Shown: positions 8,588-57,445, counted from the first letter of the stretch. The stretch is DNA of 64,000 nucleotides from Acidobacteriota bacterium (GCA_963664705.1 OY761556.1:5792001-5856000); one strand, 5' to 3'. Made by a program: numbers and translations. The notes: generated by a model not told the origin, from the sequence alone.

Positions 8588-8686
8588 AGCTTGAAAAAAC
8601 GTCACTAATTTCGCGGATGGTAACGAATGGCTTCCAGACCAGCCCCGCAACATTTGTGTCAATTCGTGGAATTAGTGGCGTTTTTC
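8588..8686. repeat. Palindromic REP/MITE-like element, copy 1
   Basis: Inverted ends AAAAACGTCACTAATT ... AATTAGTGGCGTTTTT. The core ACGAATGGCTTCC..CCCCGCAACATT is shared with the copy at 59589-59686. Confidence 0.8.
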
Positions 8687-9610
8687 GCAGCCGGGTTTTC
8701 GCAGTGGTTGGAGTTTGTTCGCCGTTTCCTTCAACAAATCCCTTAGCCAAATATGCCCTGGGTCCTGGTCCTGATAACGATGCCACTGAAGGCACTGGGT
8801 AACTTTTGGAATGTCAAAAGGAGGGGGAATTAGCCTCAGAGGCAGGTGTTGTGCGCAAAGCCGGGCTATTCGGCTCACAACCGTTGTTATTCTGTTGGTT
8901 CCCACAACCAGCCGGCACGCAGATTCGAAATCCTGTGTAATGACTTCTATTTTTCTTGTCTCTCCGTAATGTGTTGCATACCACTCTTCAAAAATTGCCT
9001 GAGCCGTCCCGAAATGAACCGCGATGTGGCCCATGTTGACGAACTGGCTTGAGGAAATTCTGTTTCCAACTATCGGGTTGTCGCGCCACACCACACAGGT
9101 GTGGGTATCTTCGAAGAGCGGTTCCTTCGGATGCGCCCTCAAGGCATGAATGGATGGACGGACAAAGAAATCGATGCCGCCCTTCTCCAGTTTCTGTTCG
9201 ATGTGCTCATCAAGCCGCACAAGTTCAAATCTGATTCCGGGCGCCTTCCGCGCAGCTTCCTGCATGGCCTGAGGCATCAAAACAGCGGTCACATAGTCGG
9301 ATACGGCAAGGCAGAATTTCCGGTCGGAAGCAGCCGGATCGAATGCCGCTTTCGAAGCGACGGTGTGCTGGATCTGCATCAGGCAACTTCTTACCGGCTG
9401 CACAAGGCTTTCCGCCAGCGGCGTCAGGACCATTCTGCGCCCCGCGGGAGCCAACAATTCATTTCCGAAGTACTTTCGAAGGCGCGAGAGGATTATGCTG
9501 GTCGCCGGCTGACTTAAATGGAGCCGCTCGCCGGCGCGCGTGACACTCTTTTCCGTCAACAAGGCATCCAGTGCTACAAGCAACCCGATATCGAAATTGT
9601 CCAGATCCAT
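8672..9610 (-). CDS. LysR-family regulator, NodD/FdeR-like
   Basis: HTH LLVALDALLTEKSVTRAGERLHLSQPATS and NodD-like LRKYFGNELL...FDPAASDRKF..SDY; C-terminal LQWH...DPGHIWLR. Divergent from the PhlG operon. Confidence 0.9.
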   Translation of the reverse strand: MDLDNFDIGLLVALDALLTEKSVTRAGERLHLSQPATSIILSRLRKYFGNELLAPAGRRMVLTPLAESLVQPVRSCLMQIQHTVASKAAFDPAASDRKFCLAVSDYVTAVLMPQAMQEAARKAPGIRFELVRLDEHIEQKLEKGGIDFFVRPSIHALRAHPKEPLFEDTHTCVVWRDNPIVGNRISSSQFVNMGHIAVHFGTAQAIFEEWYATHYGETRKIEVITQDFESACRLVVGTNRITTVVSRIARLCAQHLPLRLIPPPFDIPKVTQCLQWHRYQDQDPGHIWLRDLLKETANKLQPLRKPGCEKRH

Positions 9611-9619
9611 AAGGCCTCA

Positions 9620-9680
9620 GGTATTTAAGGTTTTAATTACAATACATATGAAATATCTATTCCACAAATGGAAAAAATTC
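9620..9680. promoter_or_regulatory. AT-rich divergent promoter region with candidate LysR box
   Basis: Very AT-rich spacer between lysR and the hydrolase gene, containing the inverted repeat TTCCA-CAAA-TGGAA (9661-9674). Confidence 0.4.
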
Positions 9681-9765
9681 ATGTACATTCGCATTGTGGG
9701 CAATTCCAGTTTCAGCCAGGAAGAATGGAATACTGCCCGTCAATCAGCAAATCGGGAGTTATCCA

Positions 9766-10596
9766 ATGGCATCTTCAGAATTACCTCCGCTCAGTCCAGA
9801 AGAACAGCGAAGATCCTACGCCAAATACTATAAAAGGCCGGTTTCGCCGGATCCCGCGCATCTGGCTTTGATGGACATGCCCTGCGACCCCTCAAAAGCC
9901 GTATATCCGGAGCAGATGAATGACCTTCTCAATCCCGGCGATCTGTCGGTGGAGATTGGGTGGTGCAATCTGCCCAACGGCGCGGGCTTTATCGCCAACA
10001 GGAACTTCTACAAAAATGTGACGGCAGAGATGATCGACTGGTGGTTCGCCTGGCATCCGCTTGACGGCTTGCGGTACCGCATTTGGTATCCGCCGCAACA
10101 CGCGGGAATTGATCTGAAGCCCGAAGGCCGGGCGCGAATTCTGGATCCAGGCATCCCCGTTTCTGAGAAGAATTGGGGGGTAACCCATTTTGTTACCGAA
10201 GACTGCGATTGTGGAATGGAAAACATCGAAATCACATTTCTGTCGCCTCGAGATTTCGGATTTGATATGACGCGGTGGCAGGAACCGTACGTTTCCACTT
10301 TCGCAGGCGGCTTCGGCTGGTCCACACCGGCTGGGCATACGGAGCATCCCATAAAGGCACCTTCTTTAATGTGTCATATTTTTCGAAATATCCCGGGCGG
10401 TCTCGAACACCGAACGCGCTTCTGGATCGGTTATCGGATGTCCAGCGGCAAGCCTGAACTGGTCCTGCCTCCGGGCATCGCAGTTCCGGCAATAGCGGTT
10501 CAGGGGTTGGCAAGGCACAATGTACGGGAATTCAGTAATCTTGGCGTGCTGCTGCCGGAGATCCACGCGGAATACGGCGGGCAGCTGATCGGGTAA
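9766..10596 (+). CDS. phlG: DAPG hydrolase/phloretin hydrolase family (PhlG-like) Zn-dependent C-C hydrolase
   Basis: VTAEMIDWWFAWH, RYRIWYPPQH, THFVTED, RTRFWIG, LARHNVREFSNLGVLLPEIH match PhlG family motifs including the H/E/H/E metal ligands. Start at ATG 9766 after a GGGAG RBS. Confidence 0.85.
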   Translation: MASSELPPLSPEEQRRSYAKYYKRPVSPDPAHLALMDMPCDPSKAVYPEQMNDLLNPGDLSVEIGWCNLPNGAGFIANRNFYKNVTAEMIDWWFAWHPLDGLRYRIWYPPQHAGIDLKPEGRARILDPGIPVSEKNWGVTHFVTEDCDCGMENIEITFLSPRDFGFDMTRWQEPYVSTFAGGFGWSTPAGHTEHPIKAPSLMCHIFRNIPGGLEHRTRFWIGYRMSSGKPELVLPPGIAVPAIAVQGLARHNVREFSNLGVLLPEIHAEYGGQLIG

Positions 10597-10630
10597 GCAT
10601 AAATACGTTCGAATCAGTTTTGGAGGGGGC

Positions 10631-10852
10631 ATGAGTGCCACTATTGAGATCAATCTGGATGAATGCACTGGCTGCAAAAATTGTGTTGAGGCTTGCTTTG
10701 TAGATGTGATGCGATGGGACGATGACGAAGAAAAGCCGGTTGTCGCATATGAACCGGATTGCGTCTGGTGTTTTACTTGCGAAATCAACTGCCCCGCTCA
10801 ATGCATCAACGTCGTACCTCAAATGCCGGGACAACTCGTAAATCCGTACTGA
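10631..10852 (+). CDS. 2x[4Fe-4S] ferredoxin (AprB-like small subunit)
   Basis: CTGCKNCVEAC and CVWCFTCEINCP motifs; GGAGG RBS. Confidence 0.92.
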   Translation: MSATIEINLDECTGCKNCVEACFVDVMRWDDDEEKPVVAYEPDCVWCFTCEINCPAQCINVVPQMPGQLVNPY

Positions 10853-10881
10853 GCGTCGTCCGCAAACAAAGGGAGTCATAC

Positions 10882-13128
10882 ATGGTAGAGAAAGCCAAGA
10901 ACTCAACAGCATACGATACAGACGTTCTTATCATCGGCGGCGGCTTCGGAGGCCTTTCGGCAGCGATCCGGATTAAAGAACTGTCCCCGGAATCCAGTGT
11001 GCTGCTCGTCGATAAACAGACAATTGGCTGGGGAGGAAAAGCGAACAAAGGGGCCGGCGTTTTATGGGTCCTTGCCCCCGGAGATGACATCGATGCCTTT
11101 GCGGATTTCCACGTAAAGAACATAGGGATGTACCTGAACGACCAGGATCTGCTGTATGCCATGGCCCGGGAGTCATACGGAGCGGCGCAGAAGCTCGCGG
11201 ATTGGGGCGTTAAGGTGATGAAGACTCCGAATGGAGATCTTGATGTCAGCCGGCTTCCTTTCGGATGGTCCCTGGCGGCCGCCGACTTGGATATGATGCA
11301 GCCGCTTAGGGCAAAGGCGGTGAAACTCGGAGTCAAGCTGTTGGACAAGACTCATGTGGTCGATTTGCTGAAACAGGAAGGACGCGTAACCGGCGCAGTC
11401 GGCTTCAATCTCCTGGATGGGGGATTCGCGGTCTTCAACGCAAAGGCCACGATATTGGCCAACGGAGATTGCGATTTCGGCGTTATGCGAATGTGGGCTA
11501 ATGCCACCGGAGACGGCATTGCAGCCGCCTTTAATGCCGGAGCGGAGATGCGGAATGCCGAATTCGGCAACTTTTACGATGTCACCAACAAAGGCACAGG
11601 CATTCCGATCGTTTTCGGTTTTAACTCTCTCTGGAACGCGCAGGGGGAGAATATAAGCGCCAAATACATCCATGGACCGCAGCCGGATATCCCGATTTCC
11701 ATCATTCTCGGTATGGAGAAAGAGGTCATGGAGGGAAGAGGACCTATCTATTTTGACCCGGCTGAGTTTGCGAAAAGCATGGGTGGCGGCGGCGGGGGAA
11801 TATTTCAATGGGACCGGCCTCATACCAAAGCGCTTTTTGCCTGTGATGCAAAGAAGGCACAGCAGTATGGCCCGCCACCGGCAGAGAAAATAGAAGTTTC
11901 TCTTGGATTCACAGGCGAGTTTTCCGCAATCAGAGTAGACAGCGAAATGCAAACAACCCTCCCGGGTCTGTGGGCAATCGGAGATACCAGCTATGCGGGA
12001 TCTGCATGGGCCGGCGCTGCAGAGGCGCCGCCGGGCAGATTGAGAGGCTCCGGCCTGATGAACGCTTTGATATCCGCTCTGATGTCTGCCCGGTCCGTGG
12101 TTGAGCACGCAAAAGAGGCCTCCCCTACCATTGCGGATGACAACCAGGTCGCCGCTCTAAGGGAGAAAATTTTTGCGCCTCTGAACCGTGACGGCGGATA
12201 CGCGGCTTCGGAAGCCATACGAAGCATTCAGGAAGTAGTTGTACCGGTGAAATACAGCATGCGCAGGAACAAGGAAAGACTGGAAGAAGCCTTGTCCAAG
12301 GTGGCAGCGGTCAAGGAGAGGCTGCCCGAATTATCCGCCAAGGATCCGCACGGTCTCGTCCGCTGTCATGAGGCTTCCTGCATTGCACTGTGTGCCGAAA
12401 TCGGCTTTAAGTCAGCGCTGGCGCGCACTGAAAGCAGGGGTTGGCATTACAGAGAGGATTATCCCCAGCAGGACGACAAAAACTGGCTCAAGTGGGTCAT
12501 TGTAAAAAAAGTGCAGGACAGCATGGTCGTTACCACCGAGCCCATTCCCAGCGAGCTCTATAAACTAAAGCCAGGACAGGTTACCGCTGTGCCTGACGCG
12601 GTTGTCGAACACGATGAGCTTATCGGGGTGACCCCCGAAATGATCGATTGGTGGTGGGTCAATATGGAAAAGGGATACCCATTGTGGGAACCAACCGATC
12701 ACAAATCCTTTGTTTGGGAAGTGCCGCCGCCGGTTGGAGGATATCTGGGAGCAATCCAGATCGCAGAGGAAAAAATGGGGCCAATGCCGCCGATGAAAAT
12801 TCGCATCCGGTGGGACGACCCCGCCACCTGCTCCATCCCTTGTATCTACGAGCATGCGATCGTTGCAGCTGGGGTTAGTCCCGATGGGAAGGTGGGCGCT
12901 ATGATTCTCCATGAGTGGGAAAAGAGTCCCCGGGGAACCAGGATGCGCTCCACGATGCGTTTCCCGGGTCCCGTTCCACCCGGCTTCGCCGAGATCTGGA
13001 AAGCTCACGACAGGGCGGAAGTATCGACCTTCCCCGGATTCCTGCCCGATCTCTACAGACTATGGCAGTCTGTGAAGGATCCGGCAATCAACAGGCAATG
13101 CTCATTGAAGGTGAAGAAAACTTCGTAG
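10882..13128 (+). CDS. SdhA/FrdA/AprA-type FAD oxidoreductase fused to a C-terminal PhlG-like hydrolase domain
   Basis: FAD motif DVLIIGGGFGGLSAA, GLWAIGD and RTESRGWHYREDYP. Then, in frame from ~12580, GVTPEMIDWWW...YPLWEPTDH...EEKMG...AHDRAE...FLPDLY. Start ATG 10882 after GGGAG. Confidence 0.85.
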   Translation: MVEKAKNSTAYDTDVLIIGGGFGGLSAAIRIKELSPESSVLLVDKQTIGWGGKANKGAGVLWVLAPGDDIDAFADFHVKNIGMYLNDQDLLYAMARESYGAAQKLADWGVKVMKTPNGDLDVSRLPFGWSLAAADLDMMQPLRAKAVKLGVKLLDKTHVVDLLKQEGRVTGAVGFNLLDGGFAVFNAKATILANGDCDFGVMRMWANATGDGIAAAFNAGAEMRNAEFGNFYDVTNKGTGIPIVFGFNSLWNAQGENISAKYIHGPQPDIPISIILGMEKEVMEGRGPIYFDPAEFAKSMGGGGGGIFQWDRPHTKALFACDAKKAQQYGPPPAEKIEVSLGFTGEFSAIRVDSEMQTTLPGLWAIGDTSYAGSAWAGAAEAPPGRLRGSGLMNALISALMSARSVVEHAKEASPTIADDNQVAALREKIFAPLNRDGGYAASEAIRSIQEVVVPVKYSMRRNKERLEEALSKVAAVKERLPELSAKDPHGLVRCHEASCIALCAEIGFKSALARTESRGWHYREDYPQQDDKNWLKWVIVKKVQDSMVVTTEPIPSELYKLKPGQVTAVPDAVVEHDELIGVTPEMIDWWWVNMEKGYPLWEPTDHKSFVWEVPPPVGGYLGAIQIAEEKMGPMPPMKIRIRWDDPATCSIPCIYEHAIVAAGVSPDGKVGAMILHEWEKSPRGTRMRSTMRFPGPVPPGFAEIWKAHDRAEVSTFPGFLPDLYRLWQSVKDPAINRQCSLKVKKTS

Positions 13129-38963: not shown

Positions 38964-39752
38964 TTACAGCGCTTTGCTCCCGCCGAGAATTCTCTCGATC
39001 GCATCGCGGCAGAGCGTAAGCACTCGTGCCAATTCAGGTTCTTTTTTCGTAAACCTGACTGTTGGGGTCGGAATGGTGATTGCGGCAATCTCCCCGTCAA
39101 AGCCGATGATCGCAGTTCCGATCGCCGAAATTCCAATCGAATGCTCCTCGCGATCGAATGCAAGCCCGGTTTCCCTAATTGTGAGGAGTTCCTCTTCAAG
39201 TTTTTTCCAGGAGCGGATGGAGTTTTCGGTGAAAGCGGTCAAATGCATGCGCTTTTTAACGCGGCTCAATGCCGCATCATCAAGCGCAGCCAACATCGCT
39301 TTGCCATTTGCCGTGCAGTGCAACGGGAATGAAACTCCGATAGCGGAGACGGCTCGAAGGCGATGGGATCCGGGTATCTGATCCACGAACACCGCCTTAT
39401 CCGCATCCATGACTGCGAGGTCAACGGTCTCACCTGTTTTCTCGGAAAGCTCCCGAAGGTAGGGGGCGGCGGTTTCGGCGAGCGGGAAACGTATGGAATG
39501 GGCAATCCTGACCAAGGCCGGACCGAGTCGCAGTCGGCCGCCGGGAGACGCTGAAACTACGAAATTCTCGGAATCAAGAGCCGAAATAATTCGCTGCACA
39601 GTTGATTTGGGCAAACCGACTTTTCCGGCAAGCTGGCCGAGACTCATACCGTTGCTTCCCTCGAGCGCCCGCAAGATCTCGGCCGCGCGAGCTATGACTT
39701 GGACTCCGTTTCGGTCCCTGGCCTTGGCTTTTGTTTTCAAGCGCTCAACCAT
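38964..39752 (-). CDS. IclR-family transcriptional regulator
   Basis: HTH VIARAAEILRAL...GLPKSTVQRI; GETVDL, PLHCTANGKAMLA, GLAFDREE. Confidence 0.93.
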   Translation of the reverse strand: MVERLKTKAKARDRNGVQVIARAAEILRALEGSNGMSLGQLAGKVGLPKSTVQRIISALDSENFVVSASPGGRLRLGPALVRIAHSIRFPLAETAAPYLRELSEKTGETVDLAVMDADKAVFVDQIPGSHRLRAVSAIGVSFPLHCTANGKAMLAALDDAALSRVKKRMHLTAFTENSIRSWKKLEEELLTIRETGLAFDREEHSIGISAIGTAIIGFDGEIAAITIPTPTVRFTKKEPELARVLTLCRDAIERILGGSKAL

Positions 39753-40668
39753 CCAGCGGTTCTCCCTTTTGCAATGCTTTCCTCAGGTACTGCGTCAGCC
39801 GATCCCGGACACCTTGTGCTGATTCCGGCGTCCACTCATAAAATCCCTTGCATGATTTCATCCCAAGGCGCTGCTCCCCAATGTAATGCGCCAACAACGG
39901 GCTGGGCTCGGGTGACGCTTCAAGATGCCGAAGGATTACATTGTGAATCGCGAGAGTCAAGTCCAGTCCCACAAGGTCAGCGTTCTCCAGCGGACCCAAT
40001 ATCGGCAGCCGAATGCCGAAGCTGTTTTTGACGACCAGATCTACTGTTTCGGCATCGCAAATACCAGCCGCTACAATTGAAATTGCTTCTCTCCACAAAG
40101 CGTGCTGTAAACGATTGCCGACAAAGCCCGGCACATCGCGTTTGACATGGACCGCCAGTTTTCCCACCCGCTTTAGCAGGTGGATGCACTTCTCGATATA
40201 AACTGGATCAGTTTGAGGCGCTTGGATGACCTCAACCAATGGGATCAAATAGGGAGGATTCCACCAGTGCGTGCCGAGGATGCGCCGCCCGGCGTCCTCG
40301 GCCTTGGCGGCGATCTCCCCAATTGGAATGACCGACGTATTGCTGGCCAGGATACAGCCGGGCTTTGTAACCTTCGATATGTCCGCGAAAATGCCCTGCT
40401 TCAATTCAAGATTCTCGGGCGCAGCCTCGAACACGATATCGGCGTTTTCAACCGCAGCTTTGAGGGCTCGGTGCAGGGTTATTCTCTCAACACTCGATGG
40501 ATCAAAGCCAAGGCTCTGCAGGTTTGCACTCACCCGCTCGGGAACTCGTGCCAGCACTTCCGGGAAAGGATCGTGGATCGCGACATCGTGCCCCATTACT
40601 GCAAAAACCTGCGCTATGCCGTGTCCCATCAACCCGGCGCCGATCACTGCAATTTTTTCCATTTTCAA
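39745..40668 (-). CDS. 3-hydroxyacyl-CoA dehydrogenase family protein (candidate 3-hydroxy-5-oxohexanoate dehydrogenase)
   Basis: IAVIGAGLMGHGIA, EAAPE, ASNTS, GTHWWNPP, PGFVGNRLQ. The specific role is inferred from context. Confidence 0.88.
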   Translation of the reverse strand: MKMEKIAVIGAGLMGHGIAQVFAVMGHDVAIHDPFPEVLARVPERVSANLQSLGFDPSSVERITLHRALKAAVENADIVFEAAPENLELKQGIFADISKVTKPGCILASNTSVIPIGEIAAKAEDAGRRILGTHWWNPPYLIPLVEVIQAPQTDPVYIEKCIHLLKRVGKLAVHVKRDVPGFVGNRLQHALWREAISIVAAGICDAETVDLVVKNSFGIRLPILGPLENADLVGLDLTLAIHNVILRHLEASPEPSPLLAHYIGEQRLGMKSCKGFYEWTPESAQGVRDRLTQYLRKALQKGEPLDG

Positions 40669-40680
40669 GCGCCTCCTGTC

Positions 40681-41481
40681 CTATACCACTCCATATTTAT
40701 AAATTCTGGGCGGAACGGGATTGATATCCTTCTCATCAATCAACGCTGCCATCCGGACAATGGATCCATCTCCCATATACCATCGCAATGGAAGTCCCAT
40801 AATCGTAACGCGCTTCCCGACGACCATCGCGATATCGCCGCCTACGTTTTCCCAACCCATGATCCCATTTCTAAGGAGAAGATTGTGACAGGGCTCCCAT
40901 TCGGGGAAATCCGCCAGCACGTCGCGTCCTGTCATCTGCTTATATTCATCACTGAGCGACGGCATGATAGGGCCGGGCCCATGGGGACCAATTGCGGTGT
41001 GCAGAGGGTGATCCAAAGCCTGCTGGTCCACGCCTACCGCTTTTACTCCTTTGGCGACAAACCACTCGCCTGCTTCGCGTCCGAGACCGGGCGAGTAGCA
41101 GAAGTACTCCTTATTGTCTCCCCAATATTTATTCCAGCCCGTGTGGACGATCACGATATCGCCCTTTTCGATCTTAGGCGTTGCCTTTTCCAGGTCGGCG
41201 GCTGTGATCAATTCCCATCTTTTCTTTGGGATGTCCACGACAACGCCCGTCCCATAGTAAAGATCCAGCGGTAATTCATGCGTATACGGGAGTCCTTCGA
41301 CTACATGTCCCGGCGAGTCGGCATGGGTTGAGCAATGCATCACGGTTGTGATCTTCTGTGAAAGGACGCCCGATTTGGCGTGGTAATGCATGCGCTCAAC
41401 TTTGATGTCTTCGAAGTATGGCCAGAGGGGAACGCCGGGGCCAAAGGGGTGACTGAGGTCCACTAATTTCTGATTGCTCAT
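40681..41481 (-). CDS. Cyclase/kynurenine formamidase family metal hydrolase (candidate dihydrophloroglucinol cyclohydrolase)
   Basis: LVDLSHP, MHCSTHADSPGH (HxxTHxD), GDIVIVHTGW, VGVDQQALDHP, ENVGG. Start at 41481. Confidence 0.88.
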   Translation of the reverse strand: MSNQKLVDLSHPFGPGVPLWPYFEDIKVERMHYHAKSGVLSQKITTVMHCSTHADSPGHVVEGLPYTHELPLDLYYGTGVVVDIPKKRWELITAADLEKATPKIEKGDIVIVHTGWNKYWGDNKEYFCYSPGLGREAGEWFVAKGVKAVGVDQQALDHPLHTAIGPHGPGPIMPSLSDEYKQMTGRDVLADFPEWEPCHNLLLRNGIMGWENVGGDIAMVVGKRVTIMGLPLRWYMGDGSIVRMAALIDEKDINPVPPRIYKYGVV

Positions 41482-41509
41482 TTCAATGTCTCCAATTTGG
41501 GTTGAGTTT

Positions 41510-42301
41510 TTATCCGGCGACTGTACCGCCGTCCACATAAAGGACTTGCCCGGTTACGAAATCGGATGCAGGCGACGCAAGATAAACGGCTGCACCCACA
41601 GAATCCTGAGTTAGGGCGGCCCTGCCCATGGGAATCCTGGACATGAAAACTTTATACAGTTGCTCGTTCTCCAATACCTCCTGTGTGAGAGGCGTCCAGA
41701 AGATGCAGGGAGCAATCGAATTCACATTGATGTTGTACTTTGCCCATTCGGTGGCCAGCTGTTTTGTGAGGAGATTCACTGCGCCTTTGCTTGTTCCATA
41801 AGCGGCATATCCTCCTGGATGCCCGGCAAATGCGCGCACAGAAGAGATTGTGATGATTTTACCCCTTTTCTTTTCTTTGAAAATTTTTGCAGCATGCTTG
41901 CAGCAAAGAAATGTTCCCCGGACATTGATATCCATGACCTGTTGCCAGTCATCAATGGGAAATTCCTCGGCGGGGAAACGCTTCGCGATTCCTGCCGCCG
42001 TGACCAGGATGTCAACAGTTCCGAACACCTTCAGAGTTTCCTGCACCATGGCCTCGACGTCTTTTTCAACGGCAACGTCGCAGCTCAGCGCCAGGGCTTT
42101 TCGGCCGGCCGCCTCAATGTCCTTTACAACGGGTTCCAGTGTCTTCAACGTGCGTCCGGTTATCACAACATTGGCGCCATATAGGGCTAGGCTTTGTGCA
42201 ATCGCTTGTCCCAGGGCGCCCGCACCTCCTGTCAGGATTGCCACCTTGCCTTCGAGACTAAACATGTTTCGGACATAATTCAAATCAACGCGAGATTCCA
42301 T
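41510..42301 (-). CDS. Short-chain dehydrogenase/reductase (candidate phloroglucinol reductase)
   Basis: TGGAGALG Rossmann motif, catalytic YGTSK, NVNSIAP, VDGG. Confidence 0.88.
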   Translation of the reverse strand: MESRVDLNYVRNMFSLEGKVAILTGGAGALGQAIAQSLALYGANVVITGRTLKTLEPVVKDIEAAGRKALALSCDVAVEKDVEAMVQETLKVFGTVDILVTAAGIAKRFPAEEFPIDDWQQVMDINVRGTFLCCKHAAKIFKEKKRGKIITISSVRAFAGHPGGYAAYGTSKGAVNLLTKQLATEWAKYNINVNSIAPCIFWTPLTQEVLENEQLYKVFMSRIPMGRAALTQDSVGAAVYLASPASDFVTGQVLYVDGGTVAG

Positions 42302-42333
42302 TGATCCACCGCCTTTCGACGTACTAATCCAGA

Positions 42334-42672
42334 TTATTTATAGGTGATGATCACAAGCATGCTTGCCGGCTTATTCGTGTTGTTGATGATCGCCCTGGCT
42401 TCGTTGGGCCCAACATACAGAGAGTCTGATGCCCTCAGCACGTATGTTTGTTTGTCCGGTGAGGTGACGGTGACCTCTCCCTCGAGCACAAAATAAAGCT
42501 TTTCCGCCGGTGTGGCGTCCATCTCGGCACCCCCATTCGGCAGAAAATGAGAGAGACCCATCCAGAACTGCTGCGTTCCTGTTTCCTCTTTTCCATGCAG
42601 TCTCAACGCGGTCATGTTGAAATGCTTGGGCGGGGCATAGGGTTTTGCATCCTGCAATTCTACCTTTTTCAT
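42334..42672 (-). CDS. Cupin domain protein
   Basis: 112 aa from ATG 42672 with GGAGG RBS; SHFLPNGGAE...EKLYFVLEGE...DSLYVGPNEAR. Confidence 0.85.
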   Translation of the reverse strand: MKKVELQDAKPYAPPKHFNMTALRLHGKEETGTQQFWMGLSHFLPNGGAEMDATPAEKLYFVLEGEVTVTSPDKQTYVLRASDSLYVGPNEARAIINNTNKPASMLVIITYK

Positions 42673-42698
42673 TCCGGCCTCCTTTATTGTTGCTGAGT

Positions 42699-42736
42699 GT
42701 ATCACGATGTGGTATGACAATACCATAATGCGGTAA
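42699..42736. promoter_or_regulatory. Tandem palindromic boxes, candidate IclR operator in the divergent promoter
   Basis: TATCACGATGTGGTA and TACCATAATGCGGTA, which together form TGGTAT-GACA-ATACCA. Confidence 0.55.
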
Positions 42737-42763
42737 AACCCAGTACCCTCAAAAGGAGACCAT

Positions 42764-43147
42764 ATGGTGAAATGGGCAAGAGTTCTGCTGTTTGTCTCTG
42801 TTGCGCTTTTTAGTCTGACTCCGGCCTTTGCCGCCGATGTTTCAGGTAAATGGACTACTGCGATACAGACTGGAATCGGGGTCATGAACTATACCTTCGA
42901 ATTTAAGGCCGATGGGGAGAAGCTCACAGGAAAGGCCGTGATGTCCATGGAAGGCGGGTCCAGTGAATCCGCCATAACGGAAGGATTCGTGAAGGGTGAT
43001 CAAATATCCTTTGTCGAAGCGCTGAAGGTTCAAGGCCAGGAACTCAGGAGTGAATACAAGGGCAAAATATCGGGTGATGAGATCCGCTGTTCCCGGCAGG
43101 TGGGCAGCTATGGAACGGAAGAGTTCGTAATAAAGCGCGCCAAATAG
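42764..43147 (+). CDS. Small secreted beta-strand protein
   Basis: Signal peptide ending AFA-A; DVSGKW...FKADGEKLTG...GDQISF...YKGKISGDEI; AGGAG RBS. Confidence 0.8.
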   Translation: MVKWARVLLFVSVALFSLTPAFAADVSGKWTTAIQTGIGVMNYTFEFKADGEKLTGKAVMSMEGGSSESAITEGFVKGDQISFVEALKVQGQELRSEYKGKISGDEIRCSRQVGSYGTEEFVIKRAK

Positions 43148-43220
43148 TTTTGCGGCCGCGAAGTCTGTCCTGGAAGAGGTCTTGGCAAACAAGCAGATTG
43201 CTTCAATGAGAGGAGCCGTT

Positions 43221-44156
43221 ATGGCCGACAAGCTGATCATCACAACAGCACTGACGGGCGCAATCACTATCCCAACCCAGACGCCTCACCTGCCCTTTAC
43301 GCCGGAGCACCTCATTGCAGACGCGATCGCATGTGGTCAAGCGGGCACTGCCGCAGTTCACGTGCATGCGCGCGATCCTGTAAACGGACGACCGCTTTCC
43401 GATCCCGACCTCTTTGGGCCGATCCTGAAAGGAATCAAAGCAGGCAGCAATGTTGTGGTAGGGACCACAACCGGAGGAGGTATGGGCATGTCACCTCAGG
43501 ACAGGCTGCGTGTGATTCCACGCTATCGTCCTGAGTTGGCATCGTTCAATCTGGGAAGCATCAATTTTTCTATTCATCCCGTGGCCAGGCGATACAAGGC
43601 CGAGGACTACAAATACGATTGGGAACAGTCGTATGCGGAAGGCACGAAGGATTTTATTTTTCGCAACACCTTCGGCGACATGGAGACCTACGCCAGTACG
43701 TTCGCGGAAAATAATGTGCGGCCCGAATTCGAGGCCTATGATGTGGGACACCTGTACAATTTGCGGTTCATGATGAAGAGCGGCATTGTGAAGCCTCCTT
43801 TTTGGATTCAGTTCGTTTTGGGAGTCCTGGGCGGTCTGGCCGCTACGATTGAAGATTTGATCGTGATGAAGCAAACGGCTGACCGGCTGTTCGGAGGCGA
43901 TAATTATCGATGGTCGGTCATCGGTGTTGGCTATCCCGCCGAGATCAATCTGGCGGCTATGGCAATTATGATGGGAGGACATGTGCGGGTAGGCCTCGAA
44001 GATAATATTTACATCGGCAAAGGCAAGCTCTGCACGAATGTCCAGCTTGTGGAAAAAATCGTGCGCCTGGCGCGAGAGTTTGACCGGGAAATCGCTACCC
44101 CTGATGACATGCGACAAATTCTGGGACTCAAGGGTACTGGAGCGGTTGGCTTTTAA
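43221..44156 (+). CDS. Beta-keto acid cleavage enzyme (DUF849/Kce family; candidate triacetate acetoacetate-lyase)
   Basis: KLIITTALTGA, HVHARD, TTGG, PELASFNLGS, PEFEAYDVGH, GGHVRVGLED. Confidence 0.92.
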   Translation: MADKLIITTALTGAITIPTQTPHLPFTPEHLIADAIACGQAGTAAVHVHARDPVNGRPLSDPDLFGPILKGIKAGSNVVVGTTTGGGMGMSPQDRLRVIPRYRPELASFNLGSINFSIHPVARRYKAEDYKYDWEQSYAEGTKDFIFRNTFGDMETYASTFAENNVRPEFEAYDVGHLYNLRFMMKSGIVKPPFWIQFVLGVLGGLAATIEDLIVMKQTADRLFGGDNYRWSVIGVGYPAEINLAAMAIMMGGHVRVGLEDNIYIGKGKLCTNVQLVEKIVRLAREFDREIATPDDMRQILGLKGTGAVGF

Positions 44157-44170
44157 AGAGGTACGACGGG

Positions 44171-44836
44171 ATGAGCAAATTCATAACTTGTACTGAAGCG
44201 GTTGAGATGATCCCCGATGGCGCCTCTCTCCTGATCGGAGGATTTATGGGGGTCGGATCGCCACACCGCGTAATCGCCGAAATGGTTCGCCAAGGACGGA
44301 AAGGGCTCACCATTATCGCCAACGATACCGGCACGCCGAATTTCGGGATTGGCCAATTGGTGCAAGCCCGGAGTATCCGCAAATTGATCGCATCTCATAT
44401 CGGGCTAAATCCCGAAACACAGAGGCAGGTAATCGCAGGAGAAATAGAAGCGGAGCTATGCCCGCAAGGTACGCTTGCGGAAAGGATTCGTGCTGGAGGC
44501 TTTGGGCTCGGCGGCGTTCTTACTCAGACAGGAATCGGAACCACCGTTGCCGAAGGGAAACCTGTTATTGACGTAGACGGGAAACAATATTTGCTCGAGA
44601 GACCTTTAACCGCTGATTTTGCACTGATCGCAGCGCATCGATCGGATTACCGAGGCAACCTGGAATATTCTATGACCGCGCGCAATTTCAACATGGTCAT
44701 GGCGACGGCCGGCCGGGTTGTCATTGCTGAACCTGAACACATCGTCCCGACCGGCGGCATACCTCCGGATGCGGTGGCGACTCCCTTCGTTTGCATTCAC
44801 CACATTATCGGGAGGGTTGGAACCAATGGACGATAA
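44171..44836 (+). CDS. atoD: 3-oxoacid (acetoacetate) CoA-transferase subunit A
   Basis: IGGFMGVGSP, IANDTG, SHIGLNP, PQGTLAERIRAGG, ARNFN. Confidence 0.88.
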   Translation: MSKFITCTEAVEMIPDGASLLIGGFMGVGSPHRVIAEMVRQGRKGLTIIANDTGTPNFGIGQLVQARSIRKLIASHIGLNPETQRQVIAGEIEAELCPQGTLAERIRAGGFGLGGVLTQTGIGTTVAEGKPVIDVDGKQYLLERPLTADFALIAAHRSDYRGNLEYSMTARNFNMVMATAGRVVIAEPEHIVPTGGIPPDAVATPFVCIHHIIGRVGTNGR

Positions 44837-45476
44837 GGTCCTGATTGCGAAGCGTGTCGCTCGCGAATTAAGGGACGGGAGCCTCGTTAATCTTGGTATC
44901 GGCTTGCCAACACTGGTTCCCAGGTATTTGCCGCCCGGGATCGAAGTCTATTTCCAATCCGAAAACGGGATAATCGGCATGGCGCCCGTGCCTGGTGTCG
45001 GAATGGAAGAACCCTCGCTTACTGATGCCGGTGGCGGTTTTGTCGGTGCCATTCCCGGAGCCGCAAGCATCGACAGTTGCCTCTCGTTCGGACTGATCCG
45101 AGGCGGCCACCTCGATTTAACTATTCTCGGTGGGCTTGAAGTGGATGAACAGGGACGGTTGGCGAACTGGACCGTGCCGGGCAAGATGTTGCCGGGAATG
45201 GGCGGCGCCATGGATCTTGTGACCGGAGCCAAGCGGGTTATTGTCGCAATGTCCCACACTGCAAGAGGCAAACCAAAAATATTGAAGAATTGCACGCTGC
45301 CTTTGACGTCGGTGCGGCGAGTCAGCCTGATCGTGACGGAAATGGCCGTGATCGAACCAACAGAGGACGGCTTGCTTCTTAAAGAGATAGCCCCGGGATT
45401 GAGCGTGGCTAAGGTCGTTGAATCGACAGAAGCGAATCTGATTGTTTCGAAACCTGTTCTCGAAATGGCGTTATAA
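44826..45476 (+). CDS. atoA: 3-oxoacid CoA-transferase subunit B
   Basis: VNLGIGLPT, catalytic QSENG, IRGGHLD, GMGGAMDL. Overlaps the subunit A stop. Confidence 0.88.
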   Translation: MDDKVLIAKRVARELRDGSLVNLGIGLPTLVPRYLPPGIEVYFQSENGIIGMAPVPGVGMEEPSLTDAGGGFVGAIPGAASIDSCLSFGLIRGGHLDLTILGGLEVDEQGRLANWTVPGKMLPGMGGAMDLVTGAKRVIVAMSHTARGKPKILKNCTLPLTSVRRVSLIVTEMAVIEPTEDGLLLKEIAPGLSVAKVVESTEANLIVSKPVLEMAL

Positions 45477-55795: not shown

Positions 55796-57445
55796 ATGGC
55801 TTTTATTAAGAATTTGTTTTGTTCGGCCTTCATGGGGGGAGGATTAATCTGCGGGATGATGGCCGCTGCGCTTCCCATTGCAAACACATTCGGCGCAGAT
55901 AGGATTGCGAAAACCTCGAAGTGCGCGGCGCTGGCGGGCCTGGCAGCGCCGGGCTTCGTGATCGAAAAGGCAACAATTATACCCGCCGGACCCGCGCCGG
56001 CGGAAGATGGCAGTGGCGTAGTGGATGGTTCGGGTGCGCCGCTTCCAGAGCATTGCCTGGTTCAGGGCATGCTCAATCCCCGCACAGGCGCAGATGGGCG
56101 CAAACTCGGCCTGGGTTTTGATCTGCGCATGCCGACAAAATGGAACGGCCGGTTTGCTTTCCAGGGTGGAGGCGGACTGGATGGCAGACTTGCGCCCGCC
56201 TTAGGGGATATTTTTGGCTCAGTTCGGCCCCCGGCATTAGCGCGCGGGTTTGCCGTTGTCGGCACGGATGGGGGACATCGTGGCTCATGGCTTGATGGCT
56301 CCTTTGGACTGGACCAGCAAGCCCGTATCGATTACGCCTATAACGCACTGGACAAAGTGACACTGAAGGCCAAAGAACTAGTTGAAAAATATTACGGTGT
56401 TGCGCCGAAGTACTCTTATTTATTGGGGTGCTCAAATGGGGGACGCCAGGGATTGATCGCCTCTCAGCGTTTTCCACTCTATTTCGATGGCATCGTTGCC
56501 GGCGATCCTTCTATTAGATTCTCCAGGGTAACAACTGCCGAAATGTGGAATCTCCAGGTGGCTGCCCGCATTGCTCCAAAGGATAACAACGGGAGGCCTA
56601 TTATTTCGCGGGCATTTTCTGATGGCGATTTGCGTCTGGTAGCTGCCGCCGTCCTTAAGCGTTGCGATGCGCTGGACGGCTTGGCGGACGGCATTATCAA
56701 TGACTGGCGTGGCTGTGACTTTGATCCTGGAGTTCTAACCTGCAAAGCTGAAAAGACAGACAGCTGTCTTTCGAACGAGCAGGTGAGCGCATTGCGGGAT
56801 CTCTACGCTGGACCACGCACGAGTGATGGGAAGCCGCTTTACAGCGCATTTAACTATGACACCGGTATTGCCGATCCAATTTGGCGCGCTATGCACCTTG
56901 GGTCCTCCGGCACTGGAGAATGGGATGCTGCTGACGCGGGACTTGGATTAAGTAATATGCGCTATTATCAACTGACGCCGCCGGATCCGAACCTAGATCC
57001 TCTGAAATTTGATTTTGATCGCGATACACAACGTACTCGCAATACCGCAATGATAAGTGATGCAGACTCCACTTTCCTCGGGACTTTTGCCCATCACGGG
57101 AAAATGATCGTTTATAACGGGCTTTCCGATCAAGGCATGGCCTCCAGTGTGCTTGCCGATTGGTACGATCAGGTAGTCCGTGATAACGGTAAGTCCATTA
57201 GTGAATCTGTGCGGCTGTTCCTTATTCCTGGTATGACTCATTGCGACGGTGGTCAGGCCACAGACCAGTTCGACATGCTCGAAGCAATTATGGGCTGGGT
57301 GGAGGAAGGACGTGCGCCTGATCGAATCAAAGCGACAGGCAAAGCTTTCCCAGGTGCATCACGGCCGATTTGTCCGTACCCTCTTGTCGCGCGTTACAAG
57401 GGTGGCGACGTTAACAACGCTGACAGCTTTATGTGCACTCAATAG
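55796..57445 (+). CDS. Tannase/feruloyl esterase family hydrolase
   Basis: WNGRF..GGGG, TDGGH, GCSNGGRQG, FDGIVAG, CDALDG..DG, PGMTHCDGG, RPICPYP. Confidence 0.93.
   Translation: MAFIKNLFCSAFMGGGLICGMMAAALPIANTFGADRIAKTSKCAALAGLAAPGFVIEKATIIPAGPAPAEDGSGVVDGSGAPLPEHCLVQGMLNPRTGADGRKLGLGFDLRMPTKWNGRFAFQGGGGLDGRLAPALGDIFGSVRPPALARGFAVVGTDGGHRGSWLDGSFGLDQQARIDYAYNALDKVTLKAKELVEKYYGVAPKYSYLLGCSNGGRQGLIASQRFPLYFDGIVAGDPSIRFSRVTTAEMWNLQVAARIAPKDNNGRPIISRAFSDGDLRLVAAAVLKRCDALDGLADGIINDWRGCDFDPGVLTCKAEKTDSCLSNEQVSALRDLYAGPRTSDGKPLYSAFNYDTGIADPIWRAMHLGSSGTGEWDAADAGLGLSNMRYYQLTPPDPNLDPLKFDFDRDTQRTRNTAMISDADSTFLGTFAHHGKMIVYNGLSDQGMASSVLADWYDQVVRDNGKSISESVRLFLIPGMTHCDGGQATDQFDMLEAIMGWVEEGRAPDRIKATGKAFPGASRPICPYPLVARYKGGDVNNADSFMCTQ

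Follow-up and report, generated by a model that had tools for sequence, protein, structure and literature searches.

The 64,000-nucleotide window analysed here, from an Acidobacteriota bacterium (GCA_963664705.1 OY761556.1:5792001-5856000), carries between positions 38964 and 45476 a cluster of nine genes that probably encodes an oxygen-independent route for phloroglucinol degradation. All nine genes are full length, with no internal stops, and lie in two divergent operons, as an earlier note made from the DNA had described; the families, assigned by Pfam and NCBIfam profiles, and the coordinates agree with that description, and start codons were adjusted using ribosome-binding sites and homologues (Table 1). 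The leftward operon runs cupin, short-chain dehydrogenase/reductase (SDR), cyclase-family hydrolase, 3-hydroxyacyl-CoA-dehydrogenase-like protein and IclR-family regulator, with spacings of 32, 28 and 18 bases followed by an 8-base overlap of the IclR start with the dehydrogenase stop. The rightward operon comprises a secreted-type protein, a BKACE (DUF849) protein and CoA-transferase subunits A and B. The four pathway enzyme families fall within 4.4 kb; the cupin, cyclase and BKACE are each single-copy in the genome, and GC content is 53% for both the cluster and the whole genome. Promoter and terminator scans gave matches at chance level (4 against 5.6 and 6 against 7.9, respectively).

Table 1. 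Features of the cluster and the PhlG-family hydrolase found elsewhere in the window; positions are counted from the first base of the window
Feature	Position	Strand	Evidence
Cupin, 112 aa (P0001)	42334..42672	-	PF07883; peptide match to CSCA_1081; conservation; TM1459 alignment; fold model
SDR, 263 aa (P0002), predicted NADPH-dependent phloroglucinol reductase	41510..42301	-	PF13561; grouped in the tree with the CsPGR-like proxy and the SDR of R. gelatinosus
Cyclase-family hydrolase, 266 aa (P0003), predicted dihydrophloroglucinol cyclohydrolase, short form	40681..41481	-	PF04199; 70% identity to R. gelatinosus
3-hydroxyacyl-CoA-dehydrogenase-like protein, 305 aa (P0004), predicted triacetate-forming, likely NAD+	39745..40662	-	PF02737/PF00725
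IclR-family regulator, 262 aa (P0005)	38964..39752	-	PF01614/PF09339
Candidate operator, palindrome TGGTAT-N4-ATACCA	42710..42725	.	core kept in aligned sequences
127-aa protein (P0006), signal-peptide-like N-terminus	42764..43147	+	no Pfam family
BKACE/DUF849 protein, 311 aa (P0007), predicted triacetate:acetyl-CoA cleavage enzyme	43221..44156	+	PF05853; NF053538, 392 bits; 8RIO, E 5.8e-86
3-oxoacid CoA-transferase subunit A, 221 aa (P0008)	44171..44836	+	PF01144; TIGR02429 over cut-off
3-oxoacid CoA-transferase subunit B, 216 aa (P0009), SENG catalytic motif	44826..45476	+	PF01144; TIGR02428 over cut-off
Phloretin-hydrolase/PhlG-family hydrolase, 276 aa, outside the cluster	9766..10596	+	PF18089, E 2.5e-68; 5XE5, E 8e-30

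In peat, sediment and gut, the breakdown of flavonoids and tannins without oxygen converges on phloroglucinol, and the net reaction of the pathway converts phloroglucinol, NADPH and NAD+ to three acetyl units. We put the probability that the cluster encodes this pathway, as described by Zhou 2023 (PMC10470551), at roughly 0.85; each of the four reactions has been demonstrated there for sister enzymes. In the window the SDR would reduce phloroglucinol with NADPH to dihydrophloroglucinol, the ring of which would be opened by the metal-dependent cyclase to 3-hydroxy-5-oxohexanoate; the dehydrogenase would oxidise this to triacetate, which the BKACE protein would cleave using acetyl-CoA, yielding acetoacetyl-CoA and acetoacetate. 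The latter would be activated by the CoA-transferase, a thiolase encoded elsewhere in the genome would complete the route to acetyl-CoA, the PhlG-family hydrolase may supply phloroglucinol, and IclR may control both operons through the palindrome. That the window proteins act on these substrates is likely, judging from the genes, families, active-site residues, clades and neighbours, and the same pathway had been proposed in the earlier note; the residues, the SDR phylogeny, the interchange of subtypes and the neighbouring genes support it.

The pathway itself has been known since 2023 and a dedicated annotation tool exists; the cluster is a further member of a described system. The expectation that automated annotation would miss it holds for Pfam and NCBIfam here and, according to the CAMPER paper (PMC10942272), for kofamscan and dbPUP; CAMPER itself has models for all four enzymes. 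The complete cluster in a near-complete genome adds a lineage to the likely phloroglucinol degraders, and the search of Zhou 2023 already holds one row named 'Acidobacteria bacterium' (PMC10470551).

To compare the window with the Clostridium scatologenes enzymes (prefixed Cs below) we used proxies, namely fetched loci recognised by eye from published mass-spectrometry peptides: locus L146 for phloroglucinol reductase (PGR) and the cupin, L150 and L151 for the long dihydrophloroglucinol cyclohydrolase (DPGC), and TGAWP-type proteins for the triacetate lyase (TAL). This comparison showed that: 1) The SDR has the catalytic residues S153/S154-Y168-K172, and a basic residue suggests use of NADPH. 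Twenty-seven cluster SDRs, including those of L146 and R. gelatinosus, split from 23 other SDRs, drawn from the genome of the window and from the same loci, with branch support of 100/99 in a tree from which 9 long-branch rows of 59 were left out and in which CsPGR and the solved PGR structure 5G4K are themselves absent; a quick tree of all 59 rows gave the same branch an SH-aLRT of 87. The window SDR is grouped with that of R. gelatinosus with good support. 2) In the cyclase H49, H53, D55, H199 and E211 are invariant in 27 of 27 aligned rows, three of them long CsDPGC-like forms, and, by analogy with isatin hydrolase, presumably include the metal ligands. The cyclase also keeps W20-P21-Y22, invariant in the same rows, with Trp20 and Tyr22 at the same numbers as in DPGC, where they are described as the substrate-recognition change relative to Ile32/Leu34 of isatin hydrolase (PMC10470551). 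Its closest relatives, 93-96% identical, are labelled as Acidobacteriota. 3) The dehydrogenase shares 16 of 20 residues with an active-site peptide of CsTfD, the triacetate-forming enzyme (by eye), and keeps the catalytic Ser, His and Asn (SNTS at 107, H132 in THWWNP and N183 in GNRLQ), which match CsTfD peptides; an Asp suggests use of NAD+. At the place of the CoA-binding Lys56 region of 3-hydroxybutyryl-CoA dehydrogenase it reads RLPILGP by eye, where we take the family motif to be NHPMGP. Loss of Lys56 and Asn221, which bind CoA in that enzyme, is the criterion given for TfD (PMC10470551). A dehydrogenase tree labelled by motif required 6 changes and formed no single clade. 4) The BKACE protein has the Zn ligands H47, H49 and E260 and the catalytic E171 and R256.

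We then examined the cyclase-anchored loci, taking the best 80 of 137 confirmed; these were chosen by similarity with kin included, and many are truncated, so their counts are descriptive and not a test. Fifty-two have at least 3 kb on each side. Among these the SDR is present in 50, the cupin in 48, the dehydrogenase in 37 and the BKACE in 32, a co-occurrence from which we conclude that the arrangement is not due to chance. CtfAB is less regular (11 of 52). Subtypes are mixed across loci: the window-type SDR is combined with the long cyclase in 2 loci and with the TGAWP lyase in 8, while SDRs resembling CsPGR are also seen together with the short cyclase. A gene like pyrogallol transhydroxylase is found in 13 of the 80 loci and a phloretin-hydrolase/PhlG-family gene in 8 (21 in all), the transhydroxylase-like protein of L028 matching 4V4C with 1141 bits; enzymes of both types yield phloroglucinol (PMC10470551). 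A number of Chloroflexota loci (L017, L019, L020, L022, L028, L029, L031, L032, L035, L043 and others) show SDR, cyclase and cupin with no dehydrogenase or BKACE nearby, often together with CaiB-type CoA-transferases, acyl-CoA synthetases (PF00501/PF16177) or the transhydroxylase. These loci possibly feed a CoA-dependent lower pathway; a BKACE is encoded elsewhere in 3 of the 5 genomes checked.

Several observations weigh against the assignment. The window SDR is 38% identical to the CsPGR-like proxy; counting by hand in the alignments gave about 37% for 5G4K and about 40% for 1VL8. PGR is not its best PDB match: 1VL8, 4Z9Y and 2ET6 outscore 5G4K, and the top match is labelled gluconate 5-dehydrogenase. 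Its cofactor motif reads TGRT, where 5G4K aligns as TGRN, and not the literal TR(S/N) given as the PGR criterion for binding the 2'-phosphate of NADPH (PMC10470551). Low identity to the characterised enzymes, which the earlier note had named as a sign against its reading, is thus seen in part, PGR identity being 37-38% and no better than that to the generic 1VL8. The cyclase is 43% identical to the long CsDPGC-like proxy, with a 45-residue gap. The BKACE protein is 33-35% identical to TGAWP-type proteins, reads TGAIT with Ile at the position of Trp16 of CsTAL, and scores 392 bits on NF053538, under the cut-off of 430 (next family 254). Further, the cluster contains no transporter gene; no transhydroxylase orthologue was found in the genome with the queries used (best 26%), and neither acetate kinase nor PntB was found there, so that ATP and NADPH supply would differ from C. 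scatologenes. Finally, PhlG is present in 20 of 24 genomes of the genus and the cyclase in 8, which indicates that the feeder is not tightly coupled. The modest identities place the SDR, cyclase and lyase in sister subfamilies of the proxies; the best match by identity would not in itself suffice to assign the SDR, and as its identity to PGR is no better than to a generic SDR, context and phylogeny carry the assignment.

The same low identities (34-50% to the characterised types for the four enzymes) and the Ile in place of Trp16 could also mean that the same chemistry acts on another ring, such as a phloroglucinol bearing substituents or some other cyclic 1,3-dione (for instance methylated, hydroxylated or resorcinol-type), the BKACE pocket reflecting a different end product; the 12 of 52 loci with cupin, SDR and cyclase and no dehydrogenase or BKACE nearby would suit such a proposal. 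We regard it as unlikely, because the subtypes interchange with the characterised ones, the same SDR and cyclase types are found in R. gelatinosus, and neighbouring genes encode enzymes whose product is phloroglucinol, while resorcinol would, on chemical grounds, give 5-oxohexanoate, in which the last two enzymes would find neither a 3-hydroxy nor a beta-keto group to act on. The high NCBIfam scores of gluconate/KduD-type SDR and Kce models might instead point to unrelated neighbours, a sugar-acid SDR operon beside a lysine- or carnitine-type BKACE operon. This seems scarcely credible given that the same genes stand together in many orders across phyla, that the BKACE lacks Glu14 of lysine Kce, and that a conserved palindrome lies between the operons.

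Phloroglucinol degradation remains the likely reading of the cluster; its lyase merits separate comment. A quick tree built from 43 cluster BKACEs puts 6 TGAWP rows and 18 TGxIT-type rows on different branches, with the TGxIT-type rows nested within a larger group of long BKACEs; TGAWP proteins score highest on the lysine-Kce model and long BKACEs on NF053538 (3,5-dioxohexanoate:acetyl-CoA acetone transferase, a family named for the cleavage of 3,5-dioxohexanoate, or triacetate), on which other long cluster members reach 404-411 bits. By hand count the window protein shares about 47% identity with P. denitrificans BKACE15 (8RIO), its third-best PDB match, and keeps the equivalents of its E171 and R254. 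Both are long BKACEs with the same Zn ligands and catalytic Glu and Arg; they differ in the substrate loop, which is TGAIH in BKACE15, and in the window protein falling under the family cut-off. The top match is 3LOT, which we take to be an Archaeoglobus fulgidus protein. For BKACE15, 3,5-dioxohexanoate is a confirmed substrate (PMC11961710), the reaction being that of TAL, and in CsTAL Trp16 stands in place of Glu14 of Kce (PMC10470551). The suggestion that the DUF849 protein is the orthologue of the characterised lyase is not supported, given the Ile for Trp16, the separate clade and the low identity. The TGAIT loop, the clade and the likeness to NF053538 and BKACE15 together indicate a protein that is not the CsTAL orthologue and yet probably works alike, cleaving triacetate from another BKACE lineage. 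As A. fulgidus appears in the species list of PMC10470551, this lyase replacement may already be implicit in the data of Zhou 2023 if 3LOT is from that organism. A short cyclase and a long BKACE of this kind may escape profiles seeded with clostridial sequences.

The C. scatologenes cluster (PGR CSCA_1082, DPGC CSCA_1083, TAL CSCA_1088 and TfD CSCA_1091; PMC10470551) resembles the window in the four enzyme families, a cupin (CSCA_1081), a CoA-transferase, a regulator, Trp20/Tyr22 of DPGC and the dehydrogenase Ser, His and Asn. Its cyclase has 312 residues against 266 in the window and its lyase 281 against 311, and the window differs further in its divergent two-operon layout, the secreted passenger gene, and the lack of a transporter, thiolase or kinase in the cluster. 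The earlier note was right that the gene set is complete and wrong in calling the cupin and CoA-transferase additions to it: CSCA_1081 is a 113-aa Cupin_2 protein numbered beside PGR and DPGC, and Zhou 2023 names CtfAB and draws its role as an acetoacetate CoA-transferase (PMC10470551), which agrees with the activation of acetoacetate that had been proposed. R. gelatinosus (L066, L067), listed as a reported phloroglucinol degrader in the same paper, shares the set CtfAB-cupin-SDR-cyclase-BKACE, with identities to the window of 62% for the SDR, 70% for the cyclase, 46-50% for the cupin and 48-57% for CtfA/B; in contrast, its lyase is of TGAWP type (34%) and its dehydrogenase (56-57%) is encoded elsewhere in the genome.

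No gene of the cluster is better conserved than the cupin, which is 62% identical to the CSCA_1081-like proxy and is assigned as the orthologue of CSCA_1081. CSCA_1081 peptides occur in all four proteomics sheets of PMC10470551, including that of phloroglucinol-grown cells, and by eye they match the C-terminal half of the window protein. The cupin is present in 69 of the 80 cyclase-anchored loci. A reverse search anchored on it took the best 80 of at least 574 metagenome matches; among the 32 loci with flanks of at least 2.5 kb, 29 have the SDR, 27 a dehydrogenase, 24 the cyclase, 18 a BKACE, and 1 none of these. In 126 of 149 loci the cupin lies directly beside the SDR and/or cyclase, and it is kept in 11 of 12 loci without dehydrogenase and BKACE nearby, which together point to the ring steps. 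In the genus sample it is found in 7 of 24 genomes, all among the 8 with the cyclase. The cupin is absent from L003, where deletions also remove parts of the BKACE and the promoter region, so this is not a working cupin-free cluster. At L114, L119, L127, L140-L142 and L157 a cupin lies with no close cyclase within 5 kb and with more distant SDR and dehydrogenase; L157 lacks even these. The cupin family thus also extends somewhat beyond complete clusters. Where representatives seemed to carry a fused cupin (10 of 150 inspected), they turned out to be tandem cupins or resembled frameshifted reads.

TM1459 H52, H54, H58 and H92, the last of which we presume to be a metal ligand, align with D52, T54, K58 and R93 of the window cupin, which thus lacks the metal-binding histidines. 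All 44 aligned cupins have K58, R93, Y12 and H17, and these four are mostly retained among distant cupins (75 full-length representatives of 109 examined), where Lys or Arg occupies position 58 in 58 and position 93 in 69. E57, K58 and R93 are invariant polar residues at barrel-lining positions, and cationic side chains replacing the metal would suit a site that binds an enolate. The predicted structure is a single barrel (pLDDT 82) whose fold matches are generic cupins with many ties (best 5UQP, Z 13.0, rmsd 2.4, 82 aligned), so no function follows from them; the ESM Atlas returned only clusters named 'cupin'. The description of the cupin role as unassigned was borne out by a literature search, which found no published role in this pathway, most subscription journals being outside its coverage.

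The most economical single reading of these features, which we offer tentatively and at less than even odds, is that the cupin may catalyse keto-enol tautomerisation, without a metal, of the ring compounds on which the first two enzymes act. A keto tautomer is the presumed substrate of PGR, and DPGC has the lowest rate in the pathway (about 1 per s against 22-25 and 78-395; PMC10470551). Against any essential role of the cupin stands the reconstitution of the pathway in vitro without it, reported in the same paper. About as likely, taken together, are two other kinds of role: assisting PGR or DPGC as a chaperone or accessory subunit, and repairing a side product such as a triacetate or 3-hydroxy-5-oxohexanoate lactone. 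The adjacency to SDR and cyclase would fit these, as would the report that recombinant CsDPGC is mostly apo and slow, with a kcat of about 1 per s (PMC10470551), whereas the invariant residues lining the barrel suggest a small-anion site, the histidines of a metallochaperone are absent, and its retention in loci with no triacetate steps close by speaks against a role on a triacetate lactone.

The closest curated family, NF050094, is named 'beta-D-galactosidase', apparently after Mycobacterium tuberculosis Rv1717, to judge by the name of the model. It is the best NCBIfam match of the window cupin; we take Rv1714-Rv1718 to encode SDR, dehydrogenase, cyclase, cupin and DUF849 proteins. Rv1714-Rv1718 are listed as one operon (PMC2724278) and a DPGC homologue of M. 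tuberculosis is listed in PMC10470551. A beta-galactosidase activity was reported for refolded Rv1717, with a published role in cell-wall glycoside hydrolysis (PMC7873859) that is at odds with the context of the window cupin. That the cupin is such an enzyme, unrelated to the pathway, is highly improbable: the match of 87 bits falls below the cut-off of 175, the protein has no signal peptide, PMC7873859 itself matched no glycoside-hydrolase active site, and the co-occurrence with SDR and cyclase, both among loci and in the genus, ties the gene to the pathway. If the tautomerase reading were true, it would represent a new cupin activity, and members of the 'beta-galactosidase' family may be enzymes of polyphenol catabolism. 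A broader proposal, which remains doubtful, joins this with the lyase: the cupin would be an overlooked fifth enzyme in which Lys58 and Arg93 replace the metal and bind the enolate and, with His17, Tyr12 and Glu57, tautomerise phloroglucinol or dihydrophloroglucinol for the reductase and the slow ring opening, the lyase step being filled independently by at least two BKACE lineages. The cupin marks a gap in a published pathway that could be tested directly and at little cost.

The palindrome lies in the 91-bp divergent gap, its core is conserved in 7 of 7 aligned sequences, and two exact copies exist in the genome; we consider it and the IclR protein a candidate regulatory pair. The secreted-type gene is found in 8 of the 80 loci, all Acidobacteriota, and has 5 further paralogues in the genome; this confinement to the closest relatives, together with the paralogues, marks it as a likely lineage-specific passenger that is probably not part of the pathway. 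An FAD-dependent oxidoreductase gene (PF12831; 37596-38918, + strand) converges on IclR, and its relatives occur in 6 of the 80 loci.

The host genome is a single 6.89-Mb contig, 98% complete, and contains thiolase genes. The description of the pathway as anaerobic holds for its chemistry but not necessarily for the organism: heme-copper oxidase subunit I matches at two places in the genome, and hence the host need not be a strict anaerobe. Use of NADPH by the SDR and NAD+ by the dehydrogenase, as predicted, would require transhydrogenation; one gene scoring over the TIGR01316 cut-off is a possible Nfn-type NADPH source. The PhlG-family hydrolase of the window, 28 kb from the cluster, adjoins the core cluster in the relatives L004 and L082 and is likely a feeder releasing phloroglucinol. 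The cluster is patchy in the genus, the cyclase occurring in 8 of 24 genomes.

The PhlG-family gene is followed by a 748-aa fusion (10882-13128, + strand) of an FAD flavoprotein of the fumarate/APS-reductase fold (residues 1-564; best PDB match just E 3e-31) with a small C-terminal PhlG-like domain (PF18089, E 2.4e-07), found in 21 of 24 genomes of the genus. In 15 of the 80 loci, from Chloroflexota, Actinomycetota and Acidobacteriota, a homologue of the flavoprotein part is encoded no more than 10 kb from the cyclase; identities are 44-48%, and 90% in L004. The fusion is a candidate upstream polyphenol enzyme and arguably a better lead than the cluster itself. A module of LysR, PhlG-family hydrolase and flavoprotein spans 8672-13128 in the window, about 26 kb from the cluster; in L004 (1395-5918) it stands directly at the CoA-transferase end of the core cluster, and LysR and PhlG are placed likewise in L082. 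Stand-alone small PhlG-like proteins of 200 aa, 32% identical to the fused domain, occur beside phloroglucinol clusters in L146 (1144-1764), L058 (18057-18662), L009 and L096. Elsewhere in the window, a gene of the tannase/feruloyl-esterase family (55796-57445, + strand; PF07519, E 1.4e-107) lies among a run of secreted hydrolases, which fits a polyphenol-using lifestyle.

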